Virus record (IMG/VR): IMGVR_UViG_3300037466_003369
Coordinates: 1-64,000 of that record
Strand: one strand, 5' to 3'
Source: a virus
Taxonomy: Duplodnaviria; Caudoviricetes
DNA: 64,000 nt
The notes beneath the pieces were generated by a model. It did no database searches and was not told where the DNA came from. It was given only the letters and a program-made list of their open reading frames with translations. The first letter of the stretch is position 1. Each line of letters starts with the position of its first letter. The position numbers and the translations under genes were made by a program. This document shows, one piece after another, positions 7,083-28,028 of this stretch.

Positions 7083-7621
7083 ACGCGCTGGTCCCGATGG
7101 GTCGCGCGACGCCGAATCCGCTGCGGAAGACAGAATTCAACTGGCTGGTCGCGAACGAGATCGTTGACCGGATCAGTGAAGGCGAATTCATGACTGACAT
7201 CCTGAAGGACGACCACATGCCGTCCTCCTGGACGATCAATCAGTGGATGCATGAATACCCCCAGTTCGCCTCGGATGTCGCGCAGGCGCGCGAGATGGGG
7301 GCCATGCACTGGCTTGAGCAGGCGACCAAGGTCGCCGTGACTCCGACCACCGCCGATAAGGTGGTCTATGGGGTCGATGGCGTGACGCTCACCCGCGAGG
7401 ACCCGGTGGCCGCGCGCAAGCTGGCGGCGTGGGGTCTGCAGGAGGCTGCGAAGCGTATCTGCCCGCAGAAGTACGGTGACAAGGTCGCCGTCACAGGCGG
7501 CTCCAAGGATGATAAGCCTGCGACGGTGCGCGTTGAGCATGAGCACACCCACGTGGTGAGGAAAGTTGAACGCGCCTTCCTTCAGCGGAGCCTTCCGGCC
7601 GAGAGCGATCCAGCCGCCTGA
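7079..7621 (+). CDS. terS: Terminase small subunit
   Basis: EIVDRISEGEFMTDILKDDHMPSSWTINQWM...F...VAQARE pattern of Sf6/P22-type TerS; directly upstream of TerL. Confidence 0.75.
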   Translation: MNALVPMGRATPNPLRKTEFNWLVANEIVDRISEGEFMTDILKDDHMPSSWTINQWMHEYPQFASDVAQAREMGAMHWLEQATKVAVTPTTADKVVYGVDGVTLTREDPVAARKLAAWGLQEAAKRICPQKYGDKVAVTGGSKDDKPATVRVEHEHTHVVRKVERAFLQRSLPAESDPAA

Positions 7622-8999
7622 GTGGCCGGACGTCGGCCTGGGCGAGGATGGCATCCTGCGGCTGCAGACGCCCGATGTCTTCCAGCCGCTCTTCGAGAAG
7701 GGTCCGAAGTACAAGGGCGCGCGCGGCGGTCGGGGCTCTGGGAAGAGCCATAACTTCGCCGAGATGCTGATCGAGGAGGCGATCTGCGACCCGTGGCTGC
7801 GGGCAGTGTGCATTCGGGAAATCCAGCGCACCCTCAAGCAGTCATCCAAGCGCCTGATCGAGGACAAGATCAGGAAGCTGCGCGTCCAGCGCTACTTCGA
7901 GAGCACCGACAAGGAAATCCACATCCTCGACGACGACGGCCAGCGCTGCGGCGTGGTCATCTTCGAGGGGATGCAGAACCACACCGCGGACTCGATCAAG
8001 TCCCTGGAGGGTTTCCGGATCGCCTGGGTGGAGGAGGCCCAGAACCTCAGCCAGCGGTCACTGGACCTGCTCTATCCGACCATCCGCGAGGCCGGCGGCG
8101 AAATCTGGTTCTCCTGGAACCCGAAGAGCCCCAAGGACCCGGTCGAGACGTTCATGACCGGCGCCGACGCGCAGGCCGATCCGAACATCATCACCGTTGA
8201 GGCCAACTACCACGATAACCCGTGGTTCTGGGCGACCGAGCTGGTCGACGACATGGAGCGTGACCGCAGACGCGATCCGGACAAGTACGCGCACATCTGG
8301 CTCGGCGCCTACCTGAAGCGCTCCGAGGCCACGGTGTTCAAGAACTGGCGCATCGCCGTGTTCGAGACCCCGGACGTGGTCGAGCGCTTCCTGTTCGGCG
8401 CCGACTGGGGCTTCAGCGTGGACCCCTCGGTCTTAGTCCGGGGCTTCCTGGGGCGGCTGATCGAGCGCGGCAAGGACGCCCACGGCAACGACGTGGTCGT
8501 GGCGATCCCCGACCAGCGCGGCAACACTCTCTTCATCGACGCCGAGGCCTACCGGGTCGGCTGCGAGATTGATTACCTGCCGGCCCTGTTCGCCGGCAAT
8601 GCGCCGCCCAAGCATGGGCGCGAGTGGGAGAACCCCTACGGCTGGCGCGGGATACCGGGAGCGCTGAGGTGGCCGATCACGGCCGACAGCGCCCGGCCCG
8701 AGACCATCAGCTACATGAAGCGCGCCGGCTTCAACATCCGACCGGCGGTCAAGGGGCCGGGCAGCATCGAGGACGGCATCGAGTTCCTGCGGAATTACGA
8801 TATCGTCGTGCTGCCGACCTGCGTCCACGTCATCGACGAGCTGAGCCTGTACTCCTACAAGGTCGACAAGATGACCGACGAGGTCCTCCCCGATCTGGAG
8901 GACAAGGACAACCACGTGATCGACGCCCTCCGTTACGCCGTGGAGGGCCAGCGACGCGGCGGCCTGCGGATCAGCGACGCGGTCCTGGCGAAGGTCTGA
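7566..8999 (+). CDS. terL: Terminase large subunit (PBSX/Terminase_3 type)
   Basis: GARGGRGSGKS, AVCIRE, IAWVEEA, FSWNP, GADWGF, DSARPE, DNHVIDALRY. Confidence 0.95.
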   Translation: MNAPSFSGAFRPRAIQPPEWPDVGLGEDGILRLQTPDVFQPLFEKGPKYKGARGGRGSGKSHNFAEMLIEEAICDPWLRAVCIREIQRTLKQSSKRLIEDKIRKLRVQRYFESTDKEIHILDDDGQRCGVVIFEGMQNHTADSIKSLEGFRIAWVEEAQNLSQRSLDLLYPTIREAGGEIWFSWNPKSPKDPVETFMTGADAQADPNIITVEANYHDNPWFWATELVDDMERDRRRDPDKYAHIWLGAYLKRSEATVFKNWRIAVFETPDVVERFLFGADWGFSVDPSVLVRGFLGRLIERGKDAHGNDVVVAIPDQRGNTLFIDAEAYRVGCEIDYLPALFAGNAPPKHGREWENPYGWRGIPGALRWPITADSARPETISYMKRAGFNIRPAVKGPGSIEDGIEFLRNYDIVVLPTCVHVIDELSLYSYKVDKMTDEVLPDLEDKDNHVIDALRYAVEGQRRGGLRISDAVLAKV

Positions 9000-9012: not shown

Positions 9013-9177
9013 ATGCCGAGCAAGTCTCCCGAGCAGCGGCGTCTGATGGCCGCCGCCGCGCATGATCCGAAGTTCGCGGCCAAGGTCGGCGTGCCGCAGA
9101 AGGTGGCCAAGGAGTTCAACCGCGCCGACCAGCACGAGGGCCAGGATCGGAGCTTCCAGAGGATCAAGGCCCTCTGA
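9013..9177 (+). CDS. Small basic phage protein (54 aa), not in the ORF track
   Basis: GGAGAG RBS; MPSKSPEQRRLMAAAAHDPKFAAKVGVPQKVAKEFNRADQHEGQDRSFQRIKAL; TGATG-coupled to the portal. Confidence 0.75.
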   Translation: MPSKSPEQRRLMAAAAHDPKFAAKVGVPQKVAKEFNRADQHEGQDRSFQRIKAL

Positions 9178-11873
9178 TGTGGCCCTTCCGGCGGGGGCCG
9201 GCGAAGCCGGCCGAACCCGCGAAGGCCGCCGAGCCGGCGCGCCCGGCCAAGCGGCGCATCAGCGACACCGCCATCGCCCGCGTCATGGAGCGGCGGCCGG
9301 GCGGCTTCATGCTGACGCCGCTGAGCGAGACCCCGCGCGTCGAGCGTCCTTTCGAGCCCGCCAAGCCGCTGACCAAGGACGCCCCGGAGATGGCCTTCGA
9401 CTCCGGCGTCGAGGACGTCTTCGCGCAGCTCAACTCGGCGACCTACAACTTTGGCGAAGGCATCGGCTTCATGGGCTACGGCTACTTGGCCGAGCTTGCC
9501 CAGCGCCCCGAGTACCGCCGCGGATGCGAGGTCTTGGCGCGGGAGATGACCCGCCGCTGGATCAAGCTGACCTACAACGGCGAGGAGGACGACATCGAGC
9601 CGGAGGCCGAGGGCGACGAGGAGGACGCCACGCCCGGCGAGGCCGACAAGGACGCCGAGCAACCTGAGCCCGAAGCGCAGAAGTCCGATGTCGATCCCGA
9701 ACGGGGTGATCCGCCGGGGATCGGGCACAACAAGCCGCCGCGTCCGGCCCGGAGGGTCAAGCCCAGCGACGAGAAGCTGAAGCGGATCGAGGCGGAGCTG
9801 AAGCGCCTGAAGGTGCGCGAGGCGTTCCGTCGCGTGGCCGAACTGGACGGCGTCTTCGGCCGTGGCCACATCTACCTGGACACCGGCGACACCGAAAAGC
9901 CGGATGAGCTGAAGACCCCGCTGACGGTCAGCAAGGTCAAGATCGGCCGGCGTAAGAAGCTGAAGCGCCTCGTCGTCGTCGAGCCGACCTGGACCTATCC
10001 GCAGAACTACGACAGTCGCGATCCGCTGAAGCCGGAGTTCTTCGAGCCGCAGAACTGGCTCGTGATGCAGAAGTCGGTCCACGCGAGCCGACTGCTGACC
10101 TTCGTGGGCCGCGAGGTCCCGGACATGTTGAAGCCGGCCTACTCGTTCGGCGGCCTCAGCCTGATCCAGATGGCCAAGCCGTACGTCGACAACTGGCTGC
10201 GCACCCGCCAGTCGGTCAGCGACATCCTGCACGCCTTCACCGTCTGGGTGGTGAAGACAGACCTCAACGACATCCTGAACGGCAGCGACGACGGCGATCA
10301 GGTCGTCCGGCGGGCCGAGCTGTTCAACCGGGTCCGCGACAACCGTGGCCTGATGATGGTCGACAAGGAGAGCGAGGACTTCGCCAACGTCGCGGCGCCG
10401 CTCGCCGGGCTCGATCATCTGCAGGCCCAGGCCCAGGAGCAGATGGCCAGCGTCTTCGCCATCCCGCTGGTGGTCCTGCTCGGCATCACGCCCTCCGGCC
10501 TGAACGCCTCCAGCGACGGCGAGATCAGGGTCTTCTACGACTTCATCCACGCCTTCCAGGAGCACCTGTTCGGCCACGCGCTGCACATCATCCTGAAGAT
10601 CGTGCAGCTCTCGCTGTTCGGGGAGATCGACGAGGACATCGGCTTCGAGTTCCTGCCCCTTTGGCAGCCGACCGAGACCGATCAGGCGACGATCCGCAAG
10701 ACCAACGCCGACATCGACAAGGCCTACATCGACGGGGGCGTGCTCGATCCCTCCGAGGTCCGCGAGAAGATCGCCAACGACAAGGACAGCCCCTACCAGA
10801 ACATCGACCCCGACGCCGTGCCGGAGCCGCCGCAACCGCCGGGCGGCGATCCCTTCGGCGCCGATCCGGATGGCGAGGGCGGCTCAGAGGACGATCCGGA
10901 CAGTGGCTTCCCGCCCTCGTCCGGCGGCGGCGAGCGCCGGCCCGCGGTCCCCAAGGCCGGCGGCAACCCCAAGCCGCCCGAGCGCCGTCCGGCCGGCGGC
11001 GATCCCAAGCCCCCGCGGGCCCAGGACGCCGCCTTCAGGGAACAGGACCATCCCCGTGGCCAGCCGGGCAACGCCGGCCAGTTCGGCCCCGGTGGTGGAA
11101 AGTCTAAGACCGAGGCTCCGAAGCCGAAGTCCAAGGAGAAGGAAGCGGCCAAGGCGGCGCAGGAGCCCGCCAGCCCCAGGGAGCGTCCGCCGTTCTCCGA
11201 GGAGGAGCTGTCCGGGCTGCCGCACGTCGATGAGATCGATCAGCCGACCACGTCCTGGGAGGAGCTGAAGACCAAGGGCGAGGAGGGCCGCGCCGCCTTC
11301 GTCGAGGCGCTCTCCGTCGTGGCTGACAAGCTGAGGCTGCGGACCGACGTGACGCTGCCCGAGCAGTTGACGCCCGAGGACCTGGAGAGCGGCGACAACT
11401 TCCTGTTCGTGGCGCCGAACAAGTCCGAGGCCCGAGCGCGGGCCAAGATCGAGAGCGACTATGGCGGCAACTGGTCAAAGCTGCGCGACATGGTCCGCGC
11501 CTCGATCACCGTGTCGTCGATGGATGAGCTGCGGGCGGCTGTGATCGCCGCCGAGGACGCGGGCCTAGCCCTGGCGGCCAAGCCCAAGGACCGCTTCACC
11601 AAGCCGACGCCCGAGGGCTACCGCGATCTCAACACCCTTGTGCGGCTGCCCAACGGCATGGTGGCCGAGCTGCAGTTCCACCTGACGCCGATCATCGCGG
11701 CCAAGAACGAGGGCCACGTCCACTACGAGGCGCAGCAGCGCCTGACCCGCAAGAACGGCATGGAGGAGCCGGACGACACGTGGTCGCTTGAGGACATCGA
11801 GCGGTTCACCCAGGCGCGCGAGCGGCAGCGTGAGCTGTACGGCGCGGCCTGGGAGAAGGCGACGAAGGCCTAG
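9177..11873 (+). CDS. Portal protein (DUF1073 type) with C-terminal RelA/SpoT-family alarmone synthetase domain
   Basis: Position after TerL; VHASRLL, AQAQEQMA...IPLVVLLGITPSGLNASSDGE..FYD portal motifs; C-terminal NKSEARARAK, LRDMVRASI, GYRDLN, AELQFH, HVHYE. Confidence 0.85.
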   Translation: MWPFRRGPAKPAEPAKAAEPARPAKRRISDTAIARVMERRPGGFMLTPLSETPRVERPFEPAKPLTKDAPEMAFDSGVEDVFAQLNSATYNFGEGIGFMGYGYLAELAQRPEYRRGCEVLAREMTRRWIKLTYNGEEDDIEPEAEGDEEDATPGEADKDAEQPEPEAQKSDVDPERGDPPGIGHNKPPRPARRVKPSDEKLKRIEAELKRLKVREAFRRVAELDGVFGRGHIYLDTGDTEKPDELKTPLTVSKVKIGRRKKLKRLVVVEPTWTYPQNYDSRDPLKPEFFEPQNWLVMQKSVHASRLLTFVGREVPDMLKPAYSFGGLSLIQMAKPYVDNWLRTRQSVSDILHAFTVWVVKTDLNDILNGSDDGDQVVRRAELFNRVRDNRGLMMVDKESEDFANVAAPLAGLDHLQAQAQEQMASVFAIPLVVLLGITPSGLNASSDGEIRVFYDFIHAFQEHLFGHALHIILKIVQLSLFGEIDEDIGFEFLPLWQPTETDQATIRKTNADIDKAYIDGGVLDPSEVREKIANDKDSPYQNIDPDAVPEPPQPPGGDPFGADPDGEGGSEDDPDSGFPPSSGGGERRPAVPKAGGNPKPPERRPAGGDPKPPRAQDAAFREQDHPRGQPGNAGQFGPGGGKSKTEAPKPKSKEKEAAKAAQEPASPRERPPFSEEELSGLPHVDEIDQPTTSWEELKTKGEEGRAAFVEALSVVADKLRLRTDVTLPEQLTPEDLESGDNFLFVAPNKSEARARAKIESDYGGNWSKLRDMVRASITVSSMDELRAAVIAAEDAGLALAAKPKDRFTKPTPEGYRDLNTLVRLPNGMVAELQFHLTPIIAAKNEGHVHYEAQQRLTRKNGMEEPDDTWSLEDIERFTQARERQRELYGAAWEKATKA

Positions 11874-12058
11874 TCGCCGCCCATCATCCTCTGGGCCTCG
11901 GCCTCGTCGATGATGTCGCCCCACTCGACGCCCTTGGGGACGTCGCCGGTGTAGGCCACGAACTTCTTCTCCGTGGGGGACCAGACCTCGCTGGGCCACG
12001 CGCGGGACCTCCCGCGGAACAGCGCCCCCTCGTTCTCGATGTAGATGAATTTGGCCAT
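11870..12058 (-). CDS. Small antisense protein (62 aa), candidate immunity/antitoxin for the portal synthetase domain
   Basis: MAKFIYIENEGALFRG...; GGAG RBS; own promoter at 12137-12168; stop codons overlap the portal stop. Function is inferred. Confidence 0.7.
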   Translation of the reverse strand: MAKFIYIENEGALFRGRSRAWPSEVWSPTEKKFVAYTGDVPKGVEWGDIIDEAEAQRMMGGD

Positions 12059-12136
12059 CGTCTTCTCCGGTTTGGGACCTCCCTTGTGATGTGCGGGTGA
12101 GCGCGGCGCAACGCGCATTCGCGGGCCCACGCTCCT

Positions 12137-12168
12137 CATATAGGCGACCTTGAAACAAAAAGGAAGTG
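12137..12168 (-). promoter_or_regulatory. Leftward promoter (repeated phage motif) inside the late operon
   Basis: CAC-TTCCTT-17 nt-TATATG; 5' part CACTTCCTTTTT identical to the copy at 58791-58822. Confidence 0.7.
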
Positions 12169-12171
12169 GAA

Positions 12172-12258
12172 ATGTTCCACACCCTCTGGATCATGGTCGC
12201 CGGCTGCATCGTCGGCTTCCAGGCCTTCGGATACCTGACCCTGTTCCGGGCGGCCTGA
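12172..12258 (+). CDS. Small single-TM peptide (28 aa)
   Basis: MFHTLWIMVAGCIVGFQAFGYLTLFRAA; AAGGAAG upstream; ends 4 nt before MuF. Confidence 0.4.
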   Translation: MFHTLWIMVAGCIVGFQAFGYLTLFRAA

Positions 12259-12262
12259 CCGG

Positions 12263-13063
12263 GTGTCCATCCACCATCGCCAGCGACAGGTGATCCTGCC
12301 GCGGGTGGTCCCGAACGCGGGACTGCAGGCCTACTACCGCAAGCGCCTCGACCGGCTGATCGAGGCCATGCACGACTCGGTCGCCTACTGGGTGGCGCAG
12401 GCCTATCGCGCCAATCCGCCGGAGATCGCCCAGGACGAGAGCCCGGCCATGGCCATGCGGCGGCTGATGCGCAAGCTGGCCAGTCGCTGGAACCGCGAGT
12501 TCGACAAGCTGGCCAGGAAGCTCTCGCCCGAGTTCGTGCGCCGCAACGGCCGGATGAGCGACACCCAGTTCATGGAGCACCTCAAGGCGGCCGGCTTCAC
12601 CGTGGAATTCTCCGTCAGCCGGCAGGTCAACGACGTGATGCAGGCGGCCATCGGCGAGAACGTGGCGCTCATCAAGTCGATCCCGCAGCAGTACCTGACC
12701 CAGGTGGAGGGCATGGTCCTGCGCTCGGTGCAGGCCGGACGCGACCTCTCCACCCTGTCGAAGGACCTGCAGCACCAGTACGGCGTCACGCGCCGCCGCG
12801 CGGCCTTCATTGCCAGGGATCAGAACAACAAGACCACCTCCGCGATCTATCGCGCTCGACAGCTCGAACTCGATATCGACGAGGCCATCTGGCACCACAG
12901 CCACGCAGGCAAGACGCCGAGGCCTAGCCACGTCGCCAACAACGGCAAGACCTACAAGGTCTCCGAGGGCTGGTACGACCCGGACCTGAAGAAGCGTATC
13001 TGGCCCGGCACGGAACCGAACTGCAGATGTACAGCCAAGTCGATCATTCGAGGGTTCATGTGA
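12263..13063 (+). CDS. MuF/SPP1 gp7-family head morphogenesis protein
   Basis: RAAFIARDQNNK, AIWHHS, WPGTEPNCRCTA. Confidence 0.9.
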   Translation: MSIHHRQRQVILPRVVPNAGLQAYYRKRLDRLIEAMHDSVAYWVAQAYRANPPEIAQDESPAMAMRRLMRKLASRWNREFDKLARKLSPEFVRRNGRMSDTQFMEHLKAAGFTVEFSVSRQVNDVMQAAIGENVALIKSIPQQYLTQVEGMVLRSVQAGRDLSTLSKDLQHQYGVTRRRAAFIARDQNNKTTSAIYRARQLELDIDEAIWHHSHAGKTPRPSHVANNGKTYKVSEGWYDPDLKKRIWPGTEPNCRCTAKSIIRGFM

Positions 13064-13233
13064 TGCCGGACGAGAGAGACGCGCCGATGTTCCTTTATCG
13101 CGGCCCGAAGGCGGACGACGACTGGACGCCGCCGACCTTCGGCATGGGCGTGGTCATCGGGGTGCTCGGCGGCCTCGTCGTCGCCGCCCTGATCAGCGCC
13201 GTCGTCACGCTGCCCTGGACCTACCTTGGCTGA
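13063..13233 (+). CDS. Small membrane protein (56 aa)
   Basis: TGATG-coupled to MuF; hydrophobic [24 protein letters not shown]. Confidence 0.55.
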
Positions 13234-15076
13234 CGGCGCCGGCGTCATGCTGCAGGCGCCGGGCAACCGGCTCCTCGTCCTGCGGCGTAGTCAGGAGAGC
13301 GATCATCCGGGGACCTACTGCTTCCCCGGCGGCGGCGTGGAGGAGGGCGAGACCTACGAGGACGCCGCGCGTCGCGAGCTGCACGAGGAGACCGGCTTCG
13401 ACTACCAGGGGCCACTCGCGCAGGTCGACGACCGCGATGGCTTCGTCACCTTCCGCGCCGAGCTGCCCGAGGAATTTGATCCCGAGCTGAACGACGAGCA
13501 CACCGAGGCCCGCTGGATCGAGCCTGGCGAGCACGACGCGGAGCCGCTGCATCCCGGCGTCAGGGCCACCCTCAGTGAGATGGGCTTCGCCATGGATCAA
13601 TCCATCCGCAAGCGCGCGCTCGCCTTCGACCGCGCCACGGTTCGCTCCTTCACCGTGGACGGCCGGCTGCAGGTCGAGCTGAACCCGATCTCCAAGGCCA
13701 ACGTCTGCCCCTACTACGGCGAGGAGATTCCGGACCACGAGAAGCTCGGTCTGGACCCTAAGCGCGTCTACATGCTGCTGCGCGATCCGGAGGAACTGGC
13801 CAAGGCGGCGGAGACCTTCAATGGCGTCCCGCTGCTGCTGATCCACAAGCCCTCCACCGCGGACGAGCACCCGCGCGAGCTGACCATCGGGACCACCGGC
13901 ACGGACGCCGCCTGGGAGGACCCGTACCTCAAAAACACCCTCGTGGTCTGGGACGCCGAGGGTATCGAGGCCATCGAATCCGACGAGCAGAAAGAGCTGT
14001 CGTCCGGCTACCGCTACCGCGCCGACATGACCCCCGGCGTGTTCAACGGCGAGAACTACGACGGGGTCATGCGGGACATCGTCGGAAACCACGTCGCCCT
14101 CGTCGAGGAGGGCCGCGCAGGACCCGACGTTGTCGTTGGCGATTCCAAACCAAGGAACCTCATGATGAAGATCAAGACTGCCGCGCTGCCGTCTCGGAAG
14201 GCCCTGCTTGTCCAGGGCGCCGTGGCGGCGGTCCTCGCGCCGATGATCGCCCAGGATGCCAAGCTCATCGACCTGGGCGGGGTGTTCAAGGGCGTCAACC
14301 GGAAGAACTACGCCGCCCAGCGGGACAACATCGTCTCGCGCCTGAAGCTGGCCACCGACAAGCGTCTGGCCAAGGACGCCGACTTGGAGGACGTGGTCGC
14401 CGTGATCGACGCCCTGAAGGGCGTCAACGGCGGCGACGCCGACGAGGACGACGTCACCATCGATGCCGATCTCGTGCCCGGAGCCGCCGACCCGGCCGAT
14501 CCGGAGAAGACCAATCCGGGCGTCTCCGGCGAGGACGAGGAGGAGGGCGGCCACGAGGCCTTCATGGCCAAGCTGAAGGCCAAGCTGGACGACGCCACCT
14601 ACGCCAAGGTGGTCTCGGCCATGTCCCCGTCCGCCGCCCCCGCGCAGGGCGCGACCGACGAGGAGAAAGACAAGAACGAGGAGCCCGGCGCCGAGGACGA
14701 GGAGGGACCCGAGAAGAAGCCCGAATTCGTCTCCAAGGGCGCGATGGACAAGGCCATCAACGCGGCCTCCGCCAAGGCGGTCAAGGACACCATCACGCGC
14801 CTCGCCGCCGTCCGCGAGGCGGAGAACATCTGTCGCCCGCACATCGGCGAGCTGGCCATCGCCATGGACTCCGCGGAGGCCGTCTACAAGCACACGCTGC
14901 AGACGGTCTGCCCCGACCGCGACCTCACCGGCATCCACCCCAGCGCCTTCCGGGCCATGGTGGAGATGCTCCCCACGGGCTCCGAGCCCAAGACCCCGCG
15001 GCTCGCCCAGGACGCCAAGAAGGCCAAGGCCTTCGAAGAGCGCTACCCCGGCGCCGACCGCATCAAGAGCCTTTAA
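13226..15076 (+). CDS. Nudix hydrolase fused to DUF2213 head maturation protease/scaffold protein
   Basis: Complete Nudix box [23 protein letters not shown] (13331-13399); DUF2213 motifs [29 protein letters not shown]; acidic/helical scaffold-like tail. Confidence 0.9.
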
Positions 15077-15088
15077 GGAGAGCCCCCG

Positions 15089-16012
15089 ATGGCTGACTTC
15101 CAAACCCAGGTGAACGTCCAGCCGGCCCCGGCCGTGGCGGGCGACTTCGCCTCCGCCAATCCGCGCTGGTCGGTCGACGCCGGCCCCGGCGGCCTCGTGG
15201 CCGGCGTCGGCGGCGTGACCGTGGGTCGCTTCGCGTGGTGGGACAATGCGAACCACCGCACCGTGCTGAACAGCGGCGCGGGCGCGCCGACCGGCTTCGT
15301 CCACCGTGAGCAGCAGGCGCTCATCACCACCTACCTCGCGGCGGCCTCCAACGTGGTCCCGGTGGGCTTCGGGATCACCCTGATGTCCGGCGGCGACTTC
15401 TGGGTGCTGAACGATGGCTCGACCGAGGCCCTGGTGGGCCAGAAGGCCTACGCCGACCTCGCCACCGGCAAGGTCTCGTTCGCCGCCACCGGCTCGGCCT
15501 CCACCGCCTCGGTGACCGGCTCCATCGCCGCCTCCACCGCCTCGGTGACCGGCTCCATCGCCGACAACGTGCTGACGGTGACCGCGGTCGCCTCCGGCAC
15601 GCTGGTGGTGGGCGGCACGCTGAGCGGTACCGGCGTGGCCACCGGCACGCAGATCGTGGCCCAGCTCTCCGGCACGCCGGGCGGCATCGGAACCTACTCG
15701 GTCAACATCGGCGAGCAGACCGTCAGTTCCACCGCGATCTCCGAGACCTACGGCACGCTGACCGTGACCGCCGTGGGCTCGGGCGCGCTGGTGCTGGGCG
15801 CCGTGCTCTCGGGCACGGGCGTCACCGCGGGCACGATCATCACCGCCCTCCTGACCGGCGCCGGCGGCACGGGGACCTACGTGGTTTCCCCGACGCAGAC
15901 GGCCGGCTCGACCACCATCACCGCGACGACCAACGTCGAGACCAAGTGGGTCTGCATGTCCCAGGGTCTGCCCGGCGAACTCGTCAAGATCAGCTCCCAC
16001 GTGCTGGGCTAA
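15089..16012 (+). CDS. Head decoration/cement protein with two inserted G/T-rich beta modules
   Basis: Between DUF2213 and capsid genes; [20 protein letters not shown] and [11 protein letters not shown], a pattern typical of this slot. Confidence 0.7.
15497..15562 (+). repeat. Perfect 33-nt in-frame tandem duplication ([11 protein letters not shown] x2)
   Basis: GCCTCCACCGCCTCGGTGACCGGCTCCATCGCC repeated twice. Confidence 0.95.
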
Positions 16013-16026
16013 GGAGTGTCCCTGAG

Positions 16027-17115
16027 ATGAACTACCACGACGCACAGACCCAGTGGACGGACGACGCTCCGCTGCTGGCCGCCAAGGGCGTGGTGCTCCC
16101 CGACGCCAAGGCGTACAAGCCCGACGAGTTCGGCGCCGACTACGGCTTCGCGATGGACGCCCAGCCGGCCCTGGTCACCCAGTCCAACGCCGGCATCCCG
16201 GCGTTCCTCACCACCATGGTCGATCCGGCGGTCATCCGGATTCTGCTGGCCCCGAACAAGGCCGCGACCATCTTCGGCGAGGTCAAGAAGGGTTCCTGGC
16301 TGGACGAGACGGCGATGTTCCCCATCGTCGAGCGCACCGGCGAGGTGAGCACCTACGGCGACTTCAACGAGAACGGCCACGCCGGGGTCAACACCAACTG
16401 GCCGCAGCGCCAGAGCTACCTGTTCCAGGTGGTGAAGGAGTGGGGCGAGCGCGAGCTTGAACGCGCCGGCCTCGCCCGCATCAACTGGGCCTCGGAGATC
16501 GACGAGGCGGCGGCGATCCAGCTCATGAAGTACTCCAACCTGACGTATTTCTTCGGCGTCGCCGGGTTGCAGAACTACGGGCTGCTGAACGACCCGAACC
16601 TGTCGGCGTCGCTGACCCCCGCCACGAAGACCTACGGTGGCGTCAAGTGGATCAACAACGGCGTCGTCGTGGCCACGGCCAACGAGGTCTACAACGACAT
16701 CCAGTCGATCTTCCTGCAGCTCGTCAACCAGTCTGGCGGCCTGATCGACCAGGAGTCGCAGATGACCCTGGCCATGTCGCCCAGCTCGGCCGTGGCCCTG
16801 ACCGCGACCAACAGCTTCAACGTCAGCGTCGCCGACCTGCTGAAGAAGAACTTCCCCAACCTGAAGCTGGAGACCGCGGTCCAGTACGGGGCGCTCTCGG
16901 CCACCAACACGCAGGGCGTGGCCGCCGGCAACCTCGTGCAGCTCATCGCCTCCAACGTCGAGGGACAGGACACCGGCTACTGCGCCTTCAACGAGAAGAT
17001 GCGCGCCCACCCGGTCATCCGCGCGATGTCCTCCTTCAAGCAGAAGGTCACGTCCGGCACCTGGGGCGCGATCATCCGTCAACCGTTCGCCATCGCGTCG
17101 ATGGTGGGAGTCTGA
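16027..17115 (+). CDS. Major capsid protein (DUF2184 type)
   Basis: AAGGAG RBS; AMDAQPAL, GEVKKGSW, GEVSTYGD, YFFGVAGLQNYGLLNDPNL, TSGTWGAIIRQP. Confidence 0.9.
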   Translation: MNYHDAQTQWTDDAPLLAAKGVVLPDAKAYKPDEFGADYGFAMDAQPALVTQSNAGIPAFLTTMVDPAVIRILLAPNKAATIFGEVKKGSWLDETAMFPIVERTGEVSTYGDFNENGHAGVNTNWPQRQSYLFQVVKEWGERELERAGLARINWASEIDEAAAIQLMKYSNLTYFFGVAGLQNYGLLNDPNLSASLTPATKTYGGVKWINNGVVVATANEVYNDIQSIFLQLVNQSGGLIDQESQMTLAMSPSSAVALTATNSFNVSVADLLKKNFPNLKLETAVQYGALSATNTQGVAAGNLVQLIASNVEGQDTGYCAFNEKMRAHPVIRAMSSFKQKVTSGTWGAIIRQPFAIASMVGV

Positions 17116-27001: not shown

Positions 27002-27672
27002 TGAGCGAAACCTATGTGGGTTTCGAGGCCCTCAACTCCGGGGCCTCCGACACCAACGCCCTGCGCTTCCTGTTCCAGCAACTCATGGCGGGGGTGTGGA
27101 CCTCCGGGCTGGTGCTGGTGAGGGCGGTGACCAATGTCGACACCCTGGACCCGGTGGGCTTCGTGGACGTCCAGCCCATGGTCCATCAGATTGACGGGCA
27201 GGGACAGATCACCCCGCACGGGACGATCCACAACCTGCCCTACTTCCGGATGCAGGGCGGGACCAACGCGGTGATCCTCGATCCCAAGGTCGGGGACATC
27301 GGCATCGCCATCTTCGCCAGCCGGGACATCTCCGCGGTCAAGACCTCCAAGCAGCCCGGCGCGCCCGGCTCCTGGCGGCGCAACGATCCCGCGGACGGCC
27401 TCTACATCGGCGGCTTCCTGAACGGCGTGCCGGCCCAGTACGTGCTGTTCAGCGACGCCGATGGGATCAAGGTGGTGAGCCCGACCAGGGTGACGATCCA
27501 GGCCCCCGACATCCAGTTCATCGGCCCGACGCATACCACCGGCGCGGTCACCGGCGACACCACCGCGACCTACGGCGGTGAGGTCACCGCCAACGGCGGC
27601 CACACGGTGAGCGCCCACACGCACGGCGGCGTGCAAACGGGCAGCGGAAGCACGGGGACGCCCACGGGATGA
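27001..27672 (+). CDS. Baseplate central spike (Gp138-like)
   Basis: VDVQP, LPYFRMQGG, DPKVGDIG; C-terminal HTHGGV metal-binding tip. Confidence 0.85.
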   Translation: MSETYVGFEALNSGASDTNALRFLFQQLMAGVWTSGLVLVRAVTNVDTLDPVGFVDVQPMVHQIDGQGQITPHGTIHNLPYFRMQGGTNAVILDPKVGDIGIAIFASRDISAVKTSKQPGAPGSWRRNDPADGLYIGGFLNGVPAQYVLFSDADGIKVVSPTRVTIQAPDIQFIGPTHTTGAVTGDTTATYGGEVTANGGHTVSAHTHGGVQTGSGSTGTPTG

Positions 27673-28028
27673 AGACGCTCCTTCTGGACACCGTCGCCTG
27701 GGACCTCGTCCTCGACGCCAGCGGCAACATCGCCCTGGCCGCCGAGCCTTATGCCCAGGCCCAGGACGCCGCCTCAGCCATCCGCACCTTCCAGGGCGAA
27801 TGCTACTACGACACCACCCTGGGCATCCCCTACTTCTCCCGCGTGCTCGGCAAGCTGCCCTCGGCCCAGTACCTCAAGGGCCAGTTCACCGCGGCGGCAC
27901 GCACGGTCCCCGGCGTGGTCACGGCGCAGTGCTTCCTCCGGGCGCTGCAGAAGCGCCAGCTCGGCGGGCAGGTCCAGATCACCAACGACCAGGGCCAGTC
28001 CGCCGTGGTCAATGTCCCGGTGGGGTAG
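27669..28028 (+). CDS. Baseplate wedge/sheath initiator (gp25/W-like)
   Basis: WDLVLDASGNIA, FQGECYYDTTLGIPY. Confidence 0.75.
   Translation: MKTLLLDTVAWDLVLDASGNIALAAEPYAQAQDAASAIRTFQGECYYDTTLGIPYFSRVLGKLPSAQYLKGQFTAAARTVPGVVTAQCFLRALQKRQLGGQVQITNDQGQSAVVNVPVG

Follow-up and report, generated by a model that had tools for sequence, protein, structure and literature searches.

Among the described head-maturation systems, the prohead protease gp21 of phage T4 removes its own 9 N-terminal residues by self-cleavage (PMC9958956), and the cleavage site of phage SPN3US gp245 ends in A-X-E, has Val as its P4 residue and is followed by Ser at P1' (PMC10052503). For the major capsid protein of the PB1-like phage KPP12, Edman sequencing gave the N-terminus SNFTAPVTT... 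(PMC3474789); KPP12 ORF22, a cement protein free of the motif considered here, starts with Met by the same method and is uncut. In mature Pa193 heads, the authors of that study found an ordered segment (residues 286-326) of the phage's DUF2213 protein but were unable to say whether the protein is cut, which counts against the reading given below. In Iyer et al. 2017, enzyme and toxin domains fused to portal or MuF proteins, including ADP-ribosyltransferase, zeta toxin, Nudix and nucleotide enzymes, were predicted to be packaged and delivered (PMC5512222).

The locus compared with these systems lies in a window of 64,000 nucleotides from a virus of the Caudoviricetes (IMG/VR record IMGVR_UViG_3300037466_003369); all features given below are on the + strand. 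The initial annotation had listed nine copies of a motif in four head proteins and proposed that a prohead protease cuts after its Asp, thereby freeing two enzyme cargos. All nine copies were found at the listed residues in the portal, MuF, Nudix-DUF2213 and capsid proteins. The whole reading, in which the phage's DUF2213 head-maturation protease recognises the motif as its cutting site, including the predicted cuts and the release of the cargos, is considered likely.

Occurrence and conservation of the motif

The portal protein (898 aa, 9177..11873; PF06381, E 4e-87; PDB matches to the Pa193 and E217 portals) consists of an N-terminal propeptide, a Phage_portal_3 core, a Pro/Gly-rich linker and a RelA/SpoT-like C-terminal domain. 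It carries MAFD↓S at aa 72-75 (9390..9401) and, in the disordered linker and heading the cargo junction, RAQD↓A at aa 614-617 (11016..11027; DAAFREQDHPRGQPGNAGQFGPGGG). The MuF-like minor head protein (266 aa, 12263..13063; PF04233, E 5e-14; phrog_324) has IAQD↓E at aa 55-58 (12425..12436). The protein at 13226..15076 combines a Nudix domain (PF00293, E 5e-21), the DUF2213 protease (PF09979, E 2e-50) and a scaffold-like C-terminal region; its 616 aa are counted from TTG, and the database form begins at ATG 13247. Its sites are FAMD↓Q in the Nudix-protease linker (aa 121-124, 13586..13597), LAFD↓R where the protease domain begins (aa 132-135, 13619..13630), IAQD↓A at the protease/scaffold boundary, in a coil right after a helix (aa 341-344, 14246..14257), IAMD↓S in a loop between helices (aa 545-548, 14858..14869) and LAQD↓A in a low-confidence linker (aa 593-596, 15002..15013). 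Two copies beyond the nine were found in the same protein, GAMD↓K (aa 505-508, 14738..14749) and the conserved A-x-D variant LAKD↓A (aa 381-384, 14366..14377), the latter again in a loop between helices. Every site of the full-length model was located in a loop or a low-confidence linker. The major capsid protein (362 aa, 16027..17115; HK97 fold family PF09950/DUF2184) carries FAMD↓A at aa 41-44 (16147..16158), numbered from the ATG at 16027. The cement/decoration protein (307 aa, 15089..16012; PF23982, PF22758) lacks the motif and is predicted to stay uncut.

The enrichment test proposed in the initial annotation was run by shuffling the residues within each protein (2000 shuffles), and the head proteins were compared with the 70 other ORFs (15,360 aa). 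The motif [ILVMFYW]A[FMQ]D, which was defined after inspection of the data, occurred 8 times in the head proteins against 0.45 expected, a count reached by 0 of the 2000 shuffles, and not once in the other ORFs against 2.8 expected. The corresponding values for A[FMQ]D were 10 against 1.6 and 5 against 9.6. The copies outside the head proteins that had been entered as a caveat were present (PAMD in the tape measure, QAQD in the ORF at 27669-28028), and other ORFs contained three more A[FMQ]D tripeptides, all lacking a hydrophobic P4. For generic A-x-D the head proteins showed no enrichment (19 observed, 17.9 expected), and within this window alone no single tripeptide stayed significant once corrected (Bonferroni) for 8000 tripeptides (AMD, P 9e-4; AQD, P 4e-3).

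With the motif specified beforehand, four further phages again showed enrichment in their head proteins, namely Klebsiella phage RCIP0114 (8 against 1.1 expected, P 2e-5), Acinetobacter phage AB1 (7 against 0.97, P 7e-5), Vibrio phage BT-1011 (6 against 0.93, P 4e-4) and Pseudomonas phage F8 (6 against 1.16, P 1e-3). The counts in the non-head proteins of each of these genomes were at the expected level. In 257 DUF2213 proteins A[FMQ]D was found 744 times in the scaffold regions (75 expected) and 61 times in the N-terminal cargo extensions (18.7 expected, a 3-fold enrichment), while the folded protease domain was not enriched (17 against 19). Wifcevirus Eco4M-7 has few A[MQFL]D sites, which counts against the reading.

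In the portal, MuF, capsid and protease-scaffold proteins the signal is genuine and conserved, and hundreds of relatives have sites at the equivalent positions. In 119 capsid homologues A42 was conserved in 99%, M43 in 93%, D44 in 100% and A45 in 97%, so that an L-A-M-D-A stretch with 93-100% conservation adjoins a variable 40-aa propeptide (residues 1-40). An equivalent phi-A-[MQL]-D was present 57-85 aa from the portal N-terminus in RCIP0114, F8, AB1, BT-1011, metagenomic homologues and 12 of 15 viral loci; the structure model of the Pa193 portal begins only at residue 94. At the position of the MuF site, P-P-x-[IM]-A-Q-D↓x-S-P-A occurred in 9 of 13 related viral loci, and FAMD, IAMD, VAMD or FAQD in cultured phages. 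This site follows a conserved N-terminal helix and not a variable propeptide, which counts against the propeptide model. The scaffold region was poorly conserved overall, and its columns with at least 90% conservation were mostly A-x-D sites, including A and D of IAQD↓A, A375 and D377 of LAKD↓A (P0006 numbering) and A, M and D of GAMD↓K, at which nearly all of 120 homologues had xAMD↓A. The lineage-specific FAMD↓Q (pLDDT <50) was found in only 3 of 120 homologues. At the LAFD position phi-A-[FLMQ]-D was present in 67 of 69 homologues without an N-terminal extension, there 3-16 aa from the N-terminus. The PB1-like DUF2213 proteins lack this N-terminal peptide, so self-cleavage there is not universal.

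Capsid N-termini and the DUF2213 domain

The capsid FAMD aligned with SAMD (residues 61-64) in the capsid proteins of Pa193 and F8. The mature KPP12 capsid protein begins at residue 65, directly after GSAMD, and its SAMD aligns with the FAMD of the window; capsid cleavage exactly after the aligned Asp has been shown in this homologous phage. The capsid structure models of E217 and Pa193 begin at residue 66, and the Pa193 cement protein gp25 was modelled from residue 1 to 211. In the T1-like phage TLS, whose gp33 is a DUF2213 protein, the capsid N-terminus ASDMGIW comes after ...AKND. For the window, the mature capsid protein is predicted to comprise residues 45-362 (318 aa, 34.3 kDa).

The best PDB match of the DUF2213 domain (13634..14185; AF2 model, pLDDT 90) was T4 gp21 (5jbl_A, Z 10.8, rmsd 2.8 over 130 residues), and the structural alignment was almost in register (model 13-171 to chain 15-172). 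Herpesvirus assemblin proteases matched with Z 7-10. The His, Ser and His of DUF2213 were invariant in 53 sequences; the candidate catalytic residues here are His207 (13844-13846), Ser259 (14000-14002) and His289 (14090-14092). The protein is named head maturation protease in PHROGs and is a homologue of the 'scaffolding protein' gp24 of Pa193. The head-protease families S78, ClpP, S77 and S49 had no match across the complete 72-kb genome. We infer that the DUF2213 domain itself is the protease responsible for the cuts, and the head protease of the phage itself very probably cleaves at hydrophobic-Ala-x-Asp. Neither this role of DUF2213 nor the likely self-activation at LAFD↓R had been recognised in the initial annotation. 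The original proposal of a short motif shared by head proteins and cut after Asp thus gained support from the enrichment and its replication, the conservation, the gp21/assemblin fold, the KPP12 and TLS N-termini and the location of the sites in loops.

Predicted processing and the enzyme cargos

In the proposed mechanism the DUF2213 domain, which spans roughly aa 137-320 in the protein of 616 aa, would act as a serine protease in the assembled prohead, cutting after the Asp of [hydrophobic]-Ala-x-Asp↓Ser/Ala with mostly Met, Gln, Phe or Leu at P2. Self-cleavage at LAFD↓R (135/136), the probable self-activation cut, and at FAMD↓Q (124/125) would render the protease active and detach the N-terminal Nudix domain. 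Cuts at 344, 384, 508, 548 and 596 would split the protease from the scaffold region and reduce the scaffold to peptides of 2-13 kDa. N-terminal propeptides of 44 aa (capsid), 75 aa (portal) and 58 aa (MuF) would be lost, and cleavage of RAQD↓A (617/618) would yield a 31-kDa RelA/SpoT-like domain with an HPR...GQF tag, in at most 12 copies per head. Cleavage at the non-capsid sites is predicted. Both cargos would be liberated by these cuts, and the released enzymes would remain in the capsid and move into the host together with the DNA.

The first predicted cargo (281 aa, 31 kDa, 11028..11870) consists of the junction tag and the RelA/SpoT-like (Tas1-like) domain. Portal aa 745-844 had a PDB match to Tas1 (E 1.9e-4), and the RelA_SpoT match of the C-terminal domain was weak (E 0.023, under the family cut-off). 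The same domain is also fused to DUF2213 proteins in P0255, P0256 and P0260. The second predicted cargo is the Nudix domain (13 kDa, 13247..13597); its residues 1-112 were modelled with confidence and lead into a disordered linker. It is plausible that the former is freed at RAQD↓A and the latter detached at the self-cleavage-like site LAFD↓R.

It is rather unlikely, though of some weight, that the code serves only the classical substrates (capsid propeptide, scaffold, perhaps the portal and MuF N-termini) and that both cargo sites are unused. No free enzymes would then arise; the synthetase would stay on the portal C-terminus, and the Nudix domain would stay on the protease or be degraded. 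RAQD has no hydrophobic residue at P4, and the HPR...GQF part dominates the conservation of the junction. In the logo of 62 junction sequences D was present in 38 and the next A in 40, and the P3 Ala in only about half of the copies; as the Asp is better conserved than this Ala, it could have another role. Residues 529-765 of the Pa193 portal are invisible, which is compatible with a tethered flexible domain and with cleavage alike. Nevertheless, A-x-D↓A was conserved in 9 of 9 portal-synthetase fusions found, 96 of the 105 homologues that have an N-terminal extension keep phi-A-[FLMQ]-D at the LAFD↓R position, within the disordered linker, and the 3-fold enrichment in the cargo extensions also argues for use of these sites. 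Multi-cargo proteins have one junction for each module, which suggests that the modules become separated.

A non-proteolytic role, with the motif as a short linear motif for docking or targeting to scaffold or protease and another enzyme cutting the capsid beside it, is very improbable. In favour of such a role, T4 capsid-targeting sequences serve targeting and cleavage together (PMC9958956), and the cutting role of DUF2213 is deduced rather than taken from enzymology. The mature KPP12 N-terminus, however, lies directly after the Asp, TLS follows the same Asp rule, the genome matched none of the other protease families searched for, DUF2213 has a protease fold with an invariant His-Ser-His, and folded domains are not enriched in the motif. 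Chance or composition, given proteins rich in Ala and Asp and a genome of 67% G+C, is an explanation for which the unenriched A-x-D and the tripeptide values of the window could be cited; it has a negligible probability and was rejected, being refuted by the independent replication, which included low-GC phages, besides the shuffles and the column-wise conservation in hundreds of homologues.

Comparison with described systems

The fusion of enzyme domains to head proteins resembles the polyvalent proteins of Iyer et al. (PMC5512222). Unlike here, the processing proposed there is mainly by zincin-like metallopeptidases, and in the passages searched the A-x-D rule, DUF2213 and the HPR junction are unmentioned.

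The PB1-like Pbunavirus phages have a homologous protein (PF09979; Pa193 gp24 and its E217, F8 and KPP12 orthologues) and the same gene order of portal, MuF, DUF2213, cement and capsid, and their capsid cut after SAMD is established by experiment. Unlike in this phage, their DUF2213 proteins have neither a Nudix domain nor the N-terminal LAFD peptide, and the HPR junction is absent from the C-terminal extension of their portal. In the literature searched, Pa193 gp24 and its orthologues are not called proteases and no cleavage rule is stated. The T1-like TLS also has a DUF2213 protease-scaffold (gp33), a Phage_portal_3 portal and a capsid cleaved after Asp with Ala at P1'. It differs as a siphovirus and by Lys instead of Ala at P3, which marks a separate dialect of the code; no fused cargo was found within the TLS region examined.

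T4 gp21 (MEROPS S77), which cuts after [L/I]-x-Glu, shares the protease fold, although sequence similarity was undetectable (PF03420 unmatched). In both systems capsid, scaffold and internal proteins (in T4, IPI-III and Alt) have a short motif with an acidic P1 in common. T4 and, by prediction, this phage also share self-cleavage of a short peptide from the N-terminus of the protease, breakdown of the scaffold to peptides, and packaged enzymes that shed a short N-terminal piece. In contrast to T4, P1 is Asp and not Glu, Ala occupies P3, a herpesvirus-like His is the third invariant residue, protease and scaffold are on a single polypeptide, and the cargo forms fusions with the C-terminus of the portal and the N-terminus of the protease instead of being free proteins with a targeting peptide. 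The logo is nearly identical to that of phiKZ gp175 and SPN3US gp245 (MEROPS S80; A/S/G-X-Glu), with hydrophobic P4, P3 Ala, any P2, acidic P1 and P1' Ser. As in those phages, where processing extends to the portal, the capsid protein and the abundant ejection proteins alike, multiple copies are found inside propeptides. The differences are Asp at P1, the sequence family DUF2213 and the occurrence in phages of 40-70 kb rather than jumbo phages. The Asp-cut motif, the DUF2213 fold and the N-termini of the homologues together point to an Asp version of the "X-x-Glu" code of T4, phiKZ and SPN3US.

Motif enrichment and conservation in head proteins

The window (64 kb) derives from a record of 72,275 bp with 67% G+C that was rated complete by CheckV. 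Its head module is encoded on the + strand and comprises the genes of the large terminase (7566-8999), the portal (9177-11873; 898 aa, Phage_portal_3 core at aa 197-515), the MuF protein (12263-13063), the Nudix-DUF2213 protein (13226-15076; 616 aa), a cement protein of the E217 gp24/XM1 gp53 type (15089-16012) and a capsid protein of the PF09950 family (16027-17115). A short antisense ORF (11870-12139, - strand, third-position G+C of 0.90) lies between the portal and MuF genes inside this operon, and a 68-aa ORF with a coding-like G+C pattern (13027-13233) is located between the MuF and Nudix-protease genes; small ORFs occur at the latter gap also in PB1-like and AB1-like phages. At 307 aa, the cement protein is longer than its relatives (160-211 aa), and its C-terminal half is made up of two long Gly/Thr/Ser-rich repeats matching the tail-fibre-like PHROGs phrog_38233 and phrog_21413. 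Such repeats suggest that an extension points outward from the capsid surface.

The initial annotation had listed copies of a hydrophobic-A-[FMQ]-D motif in the head proteins, and every copy was found at the residue given. Two copies had been overlooked, both in the DUF2213 protein: GAMD (505-508) and the conserved variant LAKD (381-384). For enrichment analysis, 75 window ORFs were called by third-position G+C and the residues were shuffled within each protein. The proposed difference between head and other proteins was borne out: [ILVMFYW]A[FMQ]D occurred 8 times in five head proteins versus 0.45 expected, a count reached in none of 2000 shuffles, and was absent from the other ORFs (15,360 aa; 2.8 expected). 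The shorter pattern A[FMQ]D was present 10 times in the five head proteins (1.6 expected) and 5 times in the other ORFs (9.6 expected). With the same within-protein shuffles the generic A-x-D was not enriched in head proteins, and no single tripeptide in the window alone was significant after correction for 8000 tests. As the motif had been defined after inspection of the data and no single tripeptide passed, the motif was fixed and then tested in other genomes; support accordingly comes from the pooled motif together with its replication and conservation.

The fixed motif was enriched in the head proteins of Klebsiella phage RCIP0114 (8 versus 1.1 expected, P 2e-5), Acinetobacter phage AB1 (7 versus 0.97, P 7e-5), Vibrio phage BT-1011 (6 versus 0.93, P 4e-4) and Pseudomonas phage F8 (6 versus 1.16, P 1e-3), and was at expectation in the non-head proteins of each. 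Counts for F8 were taken from annotated genes and those for BT-1011 from ORFs called in this analysis. The deposited annotation of BT-1011, with all 70 genes on one strand and nearly all abutting without gaps, looks artificial. Chance or composition as the origin of the motif was ruled out by the shuffles and by the replication in other genomes. One short motif with a fixed P1 residue was common to several head proteins and rare elsewhere, the pattern of motif-directed maturation. In a logo of 43 sites from five genomes, P4 was L, I, V, F or M in 30 sites, P3 was Ala, P2 was Met > Gln > Leu > Phe, P1 was Asp, and P1' was Ser or Ala in 24 sites.

Conservation at equivalent positions in relatives was seen for the sites of the capsid, portal, MuF and DUF2213 proteins, as the initial annotation had proposed to check. 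Among 119 capsid homologues A42 (99%), M43 (93%), D44 (100%) and A45 (97%) were kept while residues 1-40 were variable, and tblastn alignments to the capsids of distant phages start at residues 38-41, at the motif. In cultured phages and metagenomic homologues, the portal site, hydrophobic-A-[MQL]-D, is 57-85 residues away from the N-terminus, and it was present in 12 of 15 viral loci. The MuF site aligned at one and the same position in 9 of 13 viral loci, where it reads P-P-x-[IM]-A-Q-D↓x-S-P-A (arrow, proposed cut). In the DUF2213 protein, the sites at 133, 342, 506, 546 and 594 were kept in nearly all of 120 homologues, and FAMD at 122 was lineage-specific. In a 50-sequence alignment of this protein, the columns conserved to at least 90% outside the protease domain were mostly A-x-D sites. 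Across 257 DUF2213 proteins, A[FMQ]D occurred 744 times in the C-terminal scaffold regions (75 expected), 61 times in N-terminal extensions (18.7 expected) and 17 times in the protease domain (19 expected). In Escherichia phage vB_Eco4M-7 (Wifcevirus), a relative whose head genes are arranged in the same order, A[MQFL]D sites are few and absent from the capsid protein, and another dialect of the code may be in use.

The DUF2213 domain and the mature ends of homologous capsids

The initial annotation had taken DUF2213 for a head protein without an assigned role. A protease fold was predicted for it here. The domain (aa 140-307) matched positions 1-167 of PF09979 with 171.3 bits (cut-off 22), a match recovered again in a genome-wide search, and the family is named "head maturation protease" in PHROGs. 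An AlphaFold2 model of aa 125-320 had a pLDDT of 90, and its best PDB match was T4 gp21 (5jbl_A; Z 10.8, rmsd 2.8, 130 of 165 residues). Herpesvirus assemblins came next (VZV Z 10.2; PRV, HSV and HCMV Z 7-9), and unrelated folds (MCE domains) scored 5.5 or less; all Z-scores were obtained with VIA-align. Foldseek against the PDB gave weak E-values (4.5e-3 and above), with assemblins in all top rows. The candidate catalytic residues H207, S259 and H289, in the order His-Ser-His, were invariant in 53 sequences and are present also in Pa193 gp24. A profile search of the DUF2213 protease against PDB sequences retrieved only Pa193 gp24, with no sequence link to gp21. DUF2213 is a separate sequence family which, judged from the model, has the assemblin fold in common with the S77, S80, S78 and S21 proteases.

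Profile searches of the complete genome for other head proteases gave no match to S78 (PF04586), ClpP (PF00574) or S49 (PF01343). S77 (PF03420) gave no match either, a weak negative as this profile was silent in control genomes too. The protease gene lies between the MuF and cement/capsid genes, and in its product a helical, scaffold-like region is joined to the predicted protease. In the full-length model (numbering of the 609-aa database form, to which 7 is added for gene numbering), Nudix occupies residues 1-112, a disordered linker with both FAMD and LAFD residues 116-130, and the protease domain follows; behind it comes a helical region in which all remaining sites fall in loops or low-confidence linkers. 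Residues 286-326 of Pa193 gp24 were seen inside the capsid in the Pa193 structure paper. This "putative scaffolding protein", equivalent to F8 gp21 (locus L002, 5739-7175), carries an entire DUF2213 protease domain, in which His, Ser and His are conserved, and from its sequence would be better described as a protease-scaffold fusion. The DUF2213 proteins of PB1-like phages do not have the N-terminal LAFD peptide.

Mature N-termini directly after the motif were found for the capsid protein of homologues only, in KPP12 and TLS. In the PB1-like phage KPP12, 20 N-terminal residues of the major structural protein were read by Edman sequencing (PMC3474789). In the F8 capsid protein this peptide begins at Ser65, with GSAMD immediately before it, and HMMER aligned the window capsid FAMD (41-44) with the SAMD of the PB1-like capsid. 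The N-termini of the KPP12 cement protein and ORF30, as uncut controls, were Met (PMC3474789). Cryo-EM models of E217 and Pa193 start at residue 66 for the capsid and at residue 1 for the cement protein, and that of Pa193 at residue 94 for the portal. In the T1-like phage TLS, gp33 is a DUF2213 protein (E 4e-23), and the capsid N-terminus determined by Edman sequencing, ASDMGIW, comes after ...GAKND. With Ser65 after SAMD in KPP12 and Ala after KND in TLS, the capsid is cut behind Asp in two independent DUF2213 systems, and the P1' residue is small in both. These homologues bring cleavage at the capsid site close to proof. The mature capsid protein predicted for the window (residues 45-362, 318 aa, 34.3 kDa) equals its mature PB1-like counterpart in length. 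The claim of a cleavage code with cutting after Asp is thus supported by enrichment, positional conservation, the protease fold and the capsid N-termini of homologues.

Predicted processing and the cargo junction

The DUF2213 protease would cut after Asp in hydrophobic-A-x-D↓S/A. T4 gp21 cleaves nine N-terminal residues from itself and thereby unblocks its active site (PMC9958956); by analogy, the likely activation cut here is LAFD↓R, where the protease domain starts. Of 69 homologues without an extension, 67 had a site of this type 3-16 residues from the N-terminus; among those with N-terminal cargo, 96 of 105 had such a site too. In this phage the Nudix domain would come off with the same cut. 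Further cuts, at 344, 384, 508, 548 and 596, would part the scaffold region from the protease (22.9 kDa) and leave that region in pieces of 2-13 kDa. N-terminal propeptides of 75 aa (portal), 58 aa (MuF) and 44 aa (capsid) would be lost.

The Nudix domain at the N-terminus of the protease protein matched PF00293 with 75.6 bits (cut-off 21.1) and had many Nudix matches in the PDB. In the portal, a Pro/Gly-rich linker of about 100 aa is followed by a C-terminal domain that matches the (p)ppApp synthetase toxin Tas1 (6ox6, E 1.9e-4). Against RelA/SpoT (PF04607) this domain remained below the cut-off of 27 with 15.4 bits (E 0.023), and the homologue P0249 reached 25.4 bits. A search with portal aa 600-898 retrieved eight other portal fusions with the same synthetase-like domain, all of which kept A-x-D↓A (x = Q, S, N, G or F), and also DUF2213 proteins carrying it. 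Further portal C-terminal cargo, in homologues P0258-P0271, comprised ADP-ribosyltransferases (PF03496, PF01129), a type IB topoisomerase (PF01028), a zeta toxin (PF06414) and a Hint domain (PF13403). A protein of 1191 aa (P0260) combines Nudix, the synthetase-like domain and DUF2213.

Every cargo module was preceded by a junction, (A)-x-D-A-x-[F/W]-x-E-x-x-H-P-R-G-Q-P-G-N-A-G-Q-F-G-x-G-G-G, with up to 5 copies per protein. In the window it lies at 11025-11108 (portal aa 617-644) with about 25 conserved residues; it occurred also in the homologues P0246-P0271 and in the viral loci L010-L037, on portals, DUF2213 proteins and multi-domain head proteins. It is covered by no Pfam family. Of 62 unique junctions, 38 had the Asp, 40 had the Ala that comes next, and about half had Ala at P3. 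Candidate roles are a tag, a retention or ejection signal, or a protease exosite. A degenerate DNA pattern scan of viral contigs identified 28 viral loci with the junction, mostly with Phage_portal_3 portals, then MuF, then DUF2213 where the locus reaches far enough; co-occurrence with DUF2213 was judged on these 28 loci, many of which end before the protease gene. A tblastn search with the 31-aa junction against the phage collection gave no match, probably because the query was short and the low-complexity filter was on.

As RAQD↓A lies in the disordered portal linker, A-x-D↓A is kept and the junction precedes the modules, release of the synthetase-like domain appears plausible, less secure than the other cuts. 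The freeing of both enzymes, which the initial annotation had proposed, would be a reasonable extension of the cleavage code; for putative effectors of the T4 Alt/IP type, processed and free in virions, the features observed are the architecture and the conserved junction sites. Tentatively, the phages with Phage_portal_3, MuF and DUF2213, which are very numerous, might build their heads from cut-and-release polyproteins and inject the freed, tagged cargo with the DNA. A standard cassette, namely an x-x-Asp↓Ala cut site followed by the tag F/W-x-E-x-x-HPR-G-x-x-G-x-x-G-Q-F, would then allow any enzyme or toxin module to be fused behind it, at the C-terminus of the portal or the N-terminus of the protease; the modules observed include the RelA/SpoT-like synthetase, Nudix, ADP-ribosyltransferase, zeta toxin and type IB topoisomerase. 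If this is true, the Asp-specific DUF2213 protease would turn fusions into free, tagged internal proteins of fixed copy number (up to 12 per head for portal cargo; for protease cargo, the number of protease-scaffold copies), and this phage would deliver a matched pair of synthetase and Nudix at infection. The code would explain how enzymes on essential head proteins could become free internal proteins, and cargo release bears on phage counter-defence and on the laboratory packaging of chosen proteins into phage capsids.

Comparison with known head maturation systems

The DUF2213 family has about 8,500 clusters at 50% identity and takes in the therapeutic Pseudomonas phages E217 and Pa193, Acinetobacter Obolenskvirus and T1-like coliphages. 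The testable rule for it is that the cut follows an Asp, P3 being Ala in this clade. For the portal, MuF and capsid proteins as well as the scaffold peptides, the code predicts mature ends and masses. Published structures can be re-read accordingly, with a predicted protease domain in the Pa193 "putative scaffolding protein". The structure papers on E217, Pa193 and XM1 identified neither the protease nor a cleavage rule; gp24 was described as a putative scaffolding protein in the Pa193 paper, and the XM1 authors suggested another gene product, gp46, as the protease. A survey of polyvalent proteins describes portal and MuF fusions and suggests zincin-like peptidases for their processing (PMC5512222). 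In the literature covered, which included few subscription journals, no stated A-x-D rule or characterised DUF2213 protease was found, and an earlier description may exist.

The results support a code that is an Asp-P1, Ala-P3 version of motif-directed head maturation, with an enzyme from an uncharacterised and very large protease family. The closest described systems are T4 gp21, which recognizes [L/I]-x-Glu, and phiKZ gp175/SPN3US gp245. The logo of SPN3US gp245 is Val(P4)-Ala-X-Glu↓Ser (PMC10052503), and the logo obtained here is nearly identical, with Asp in place of Glu at P1.
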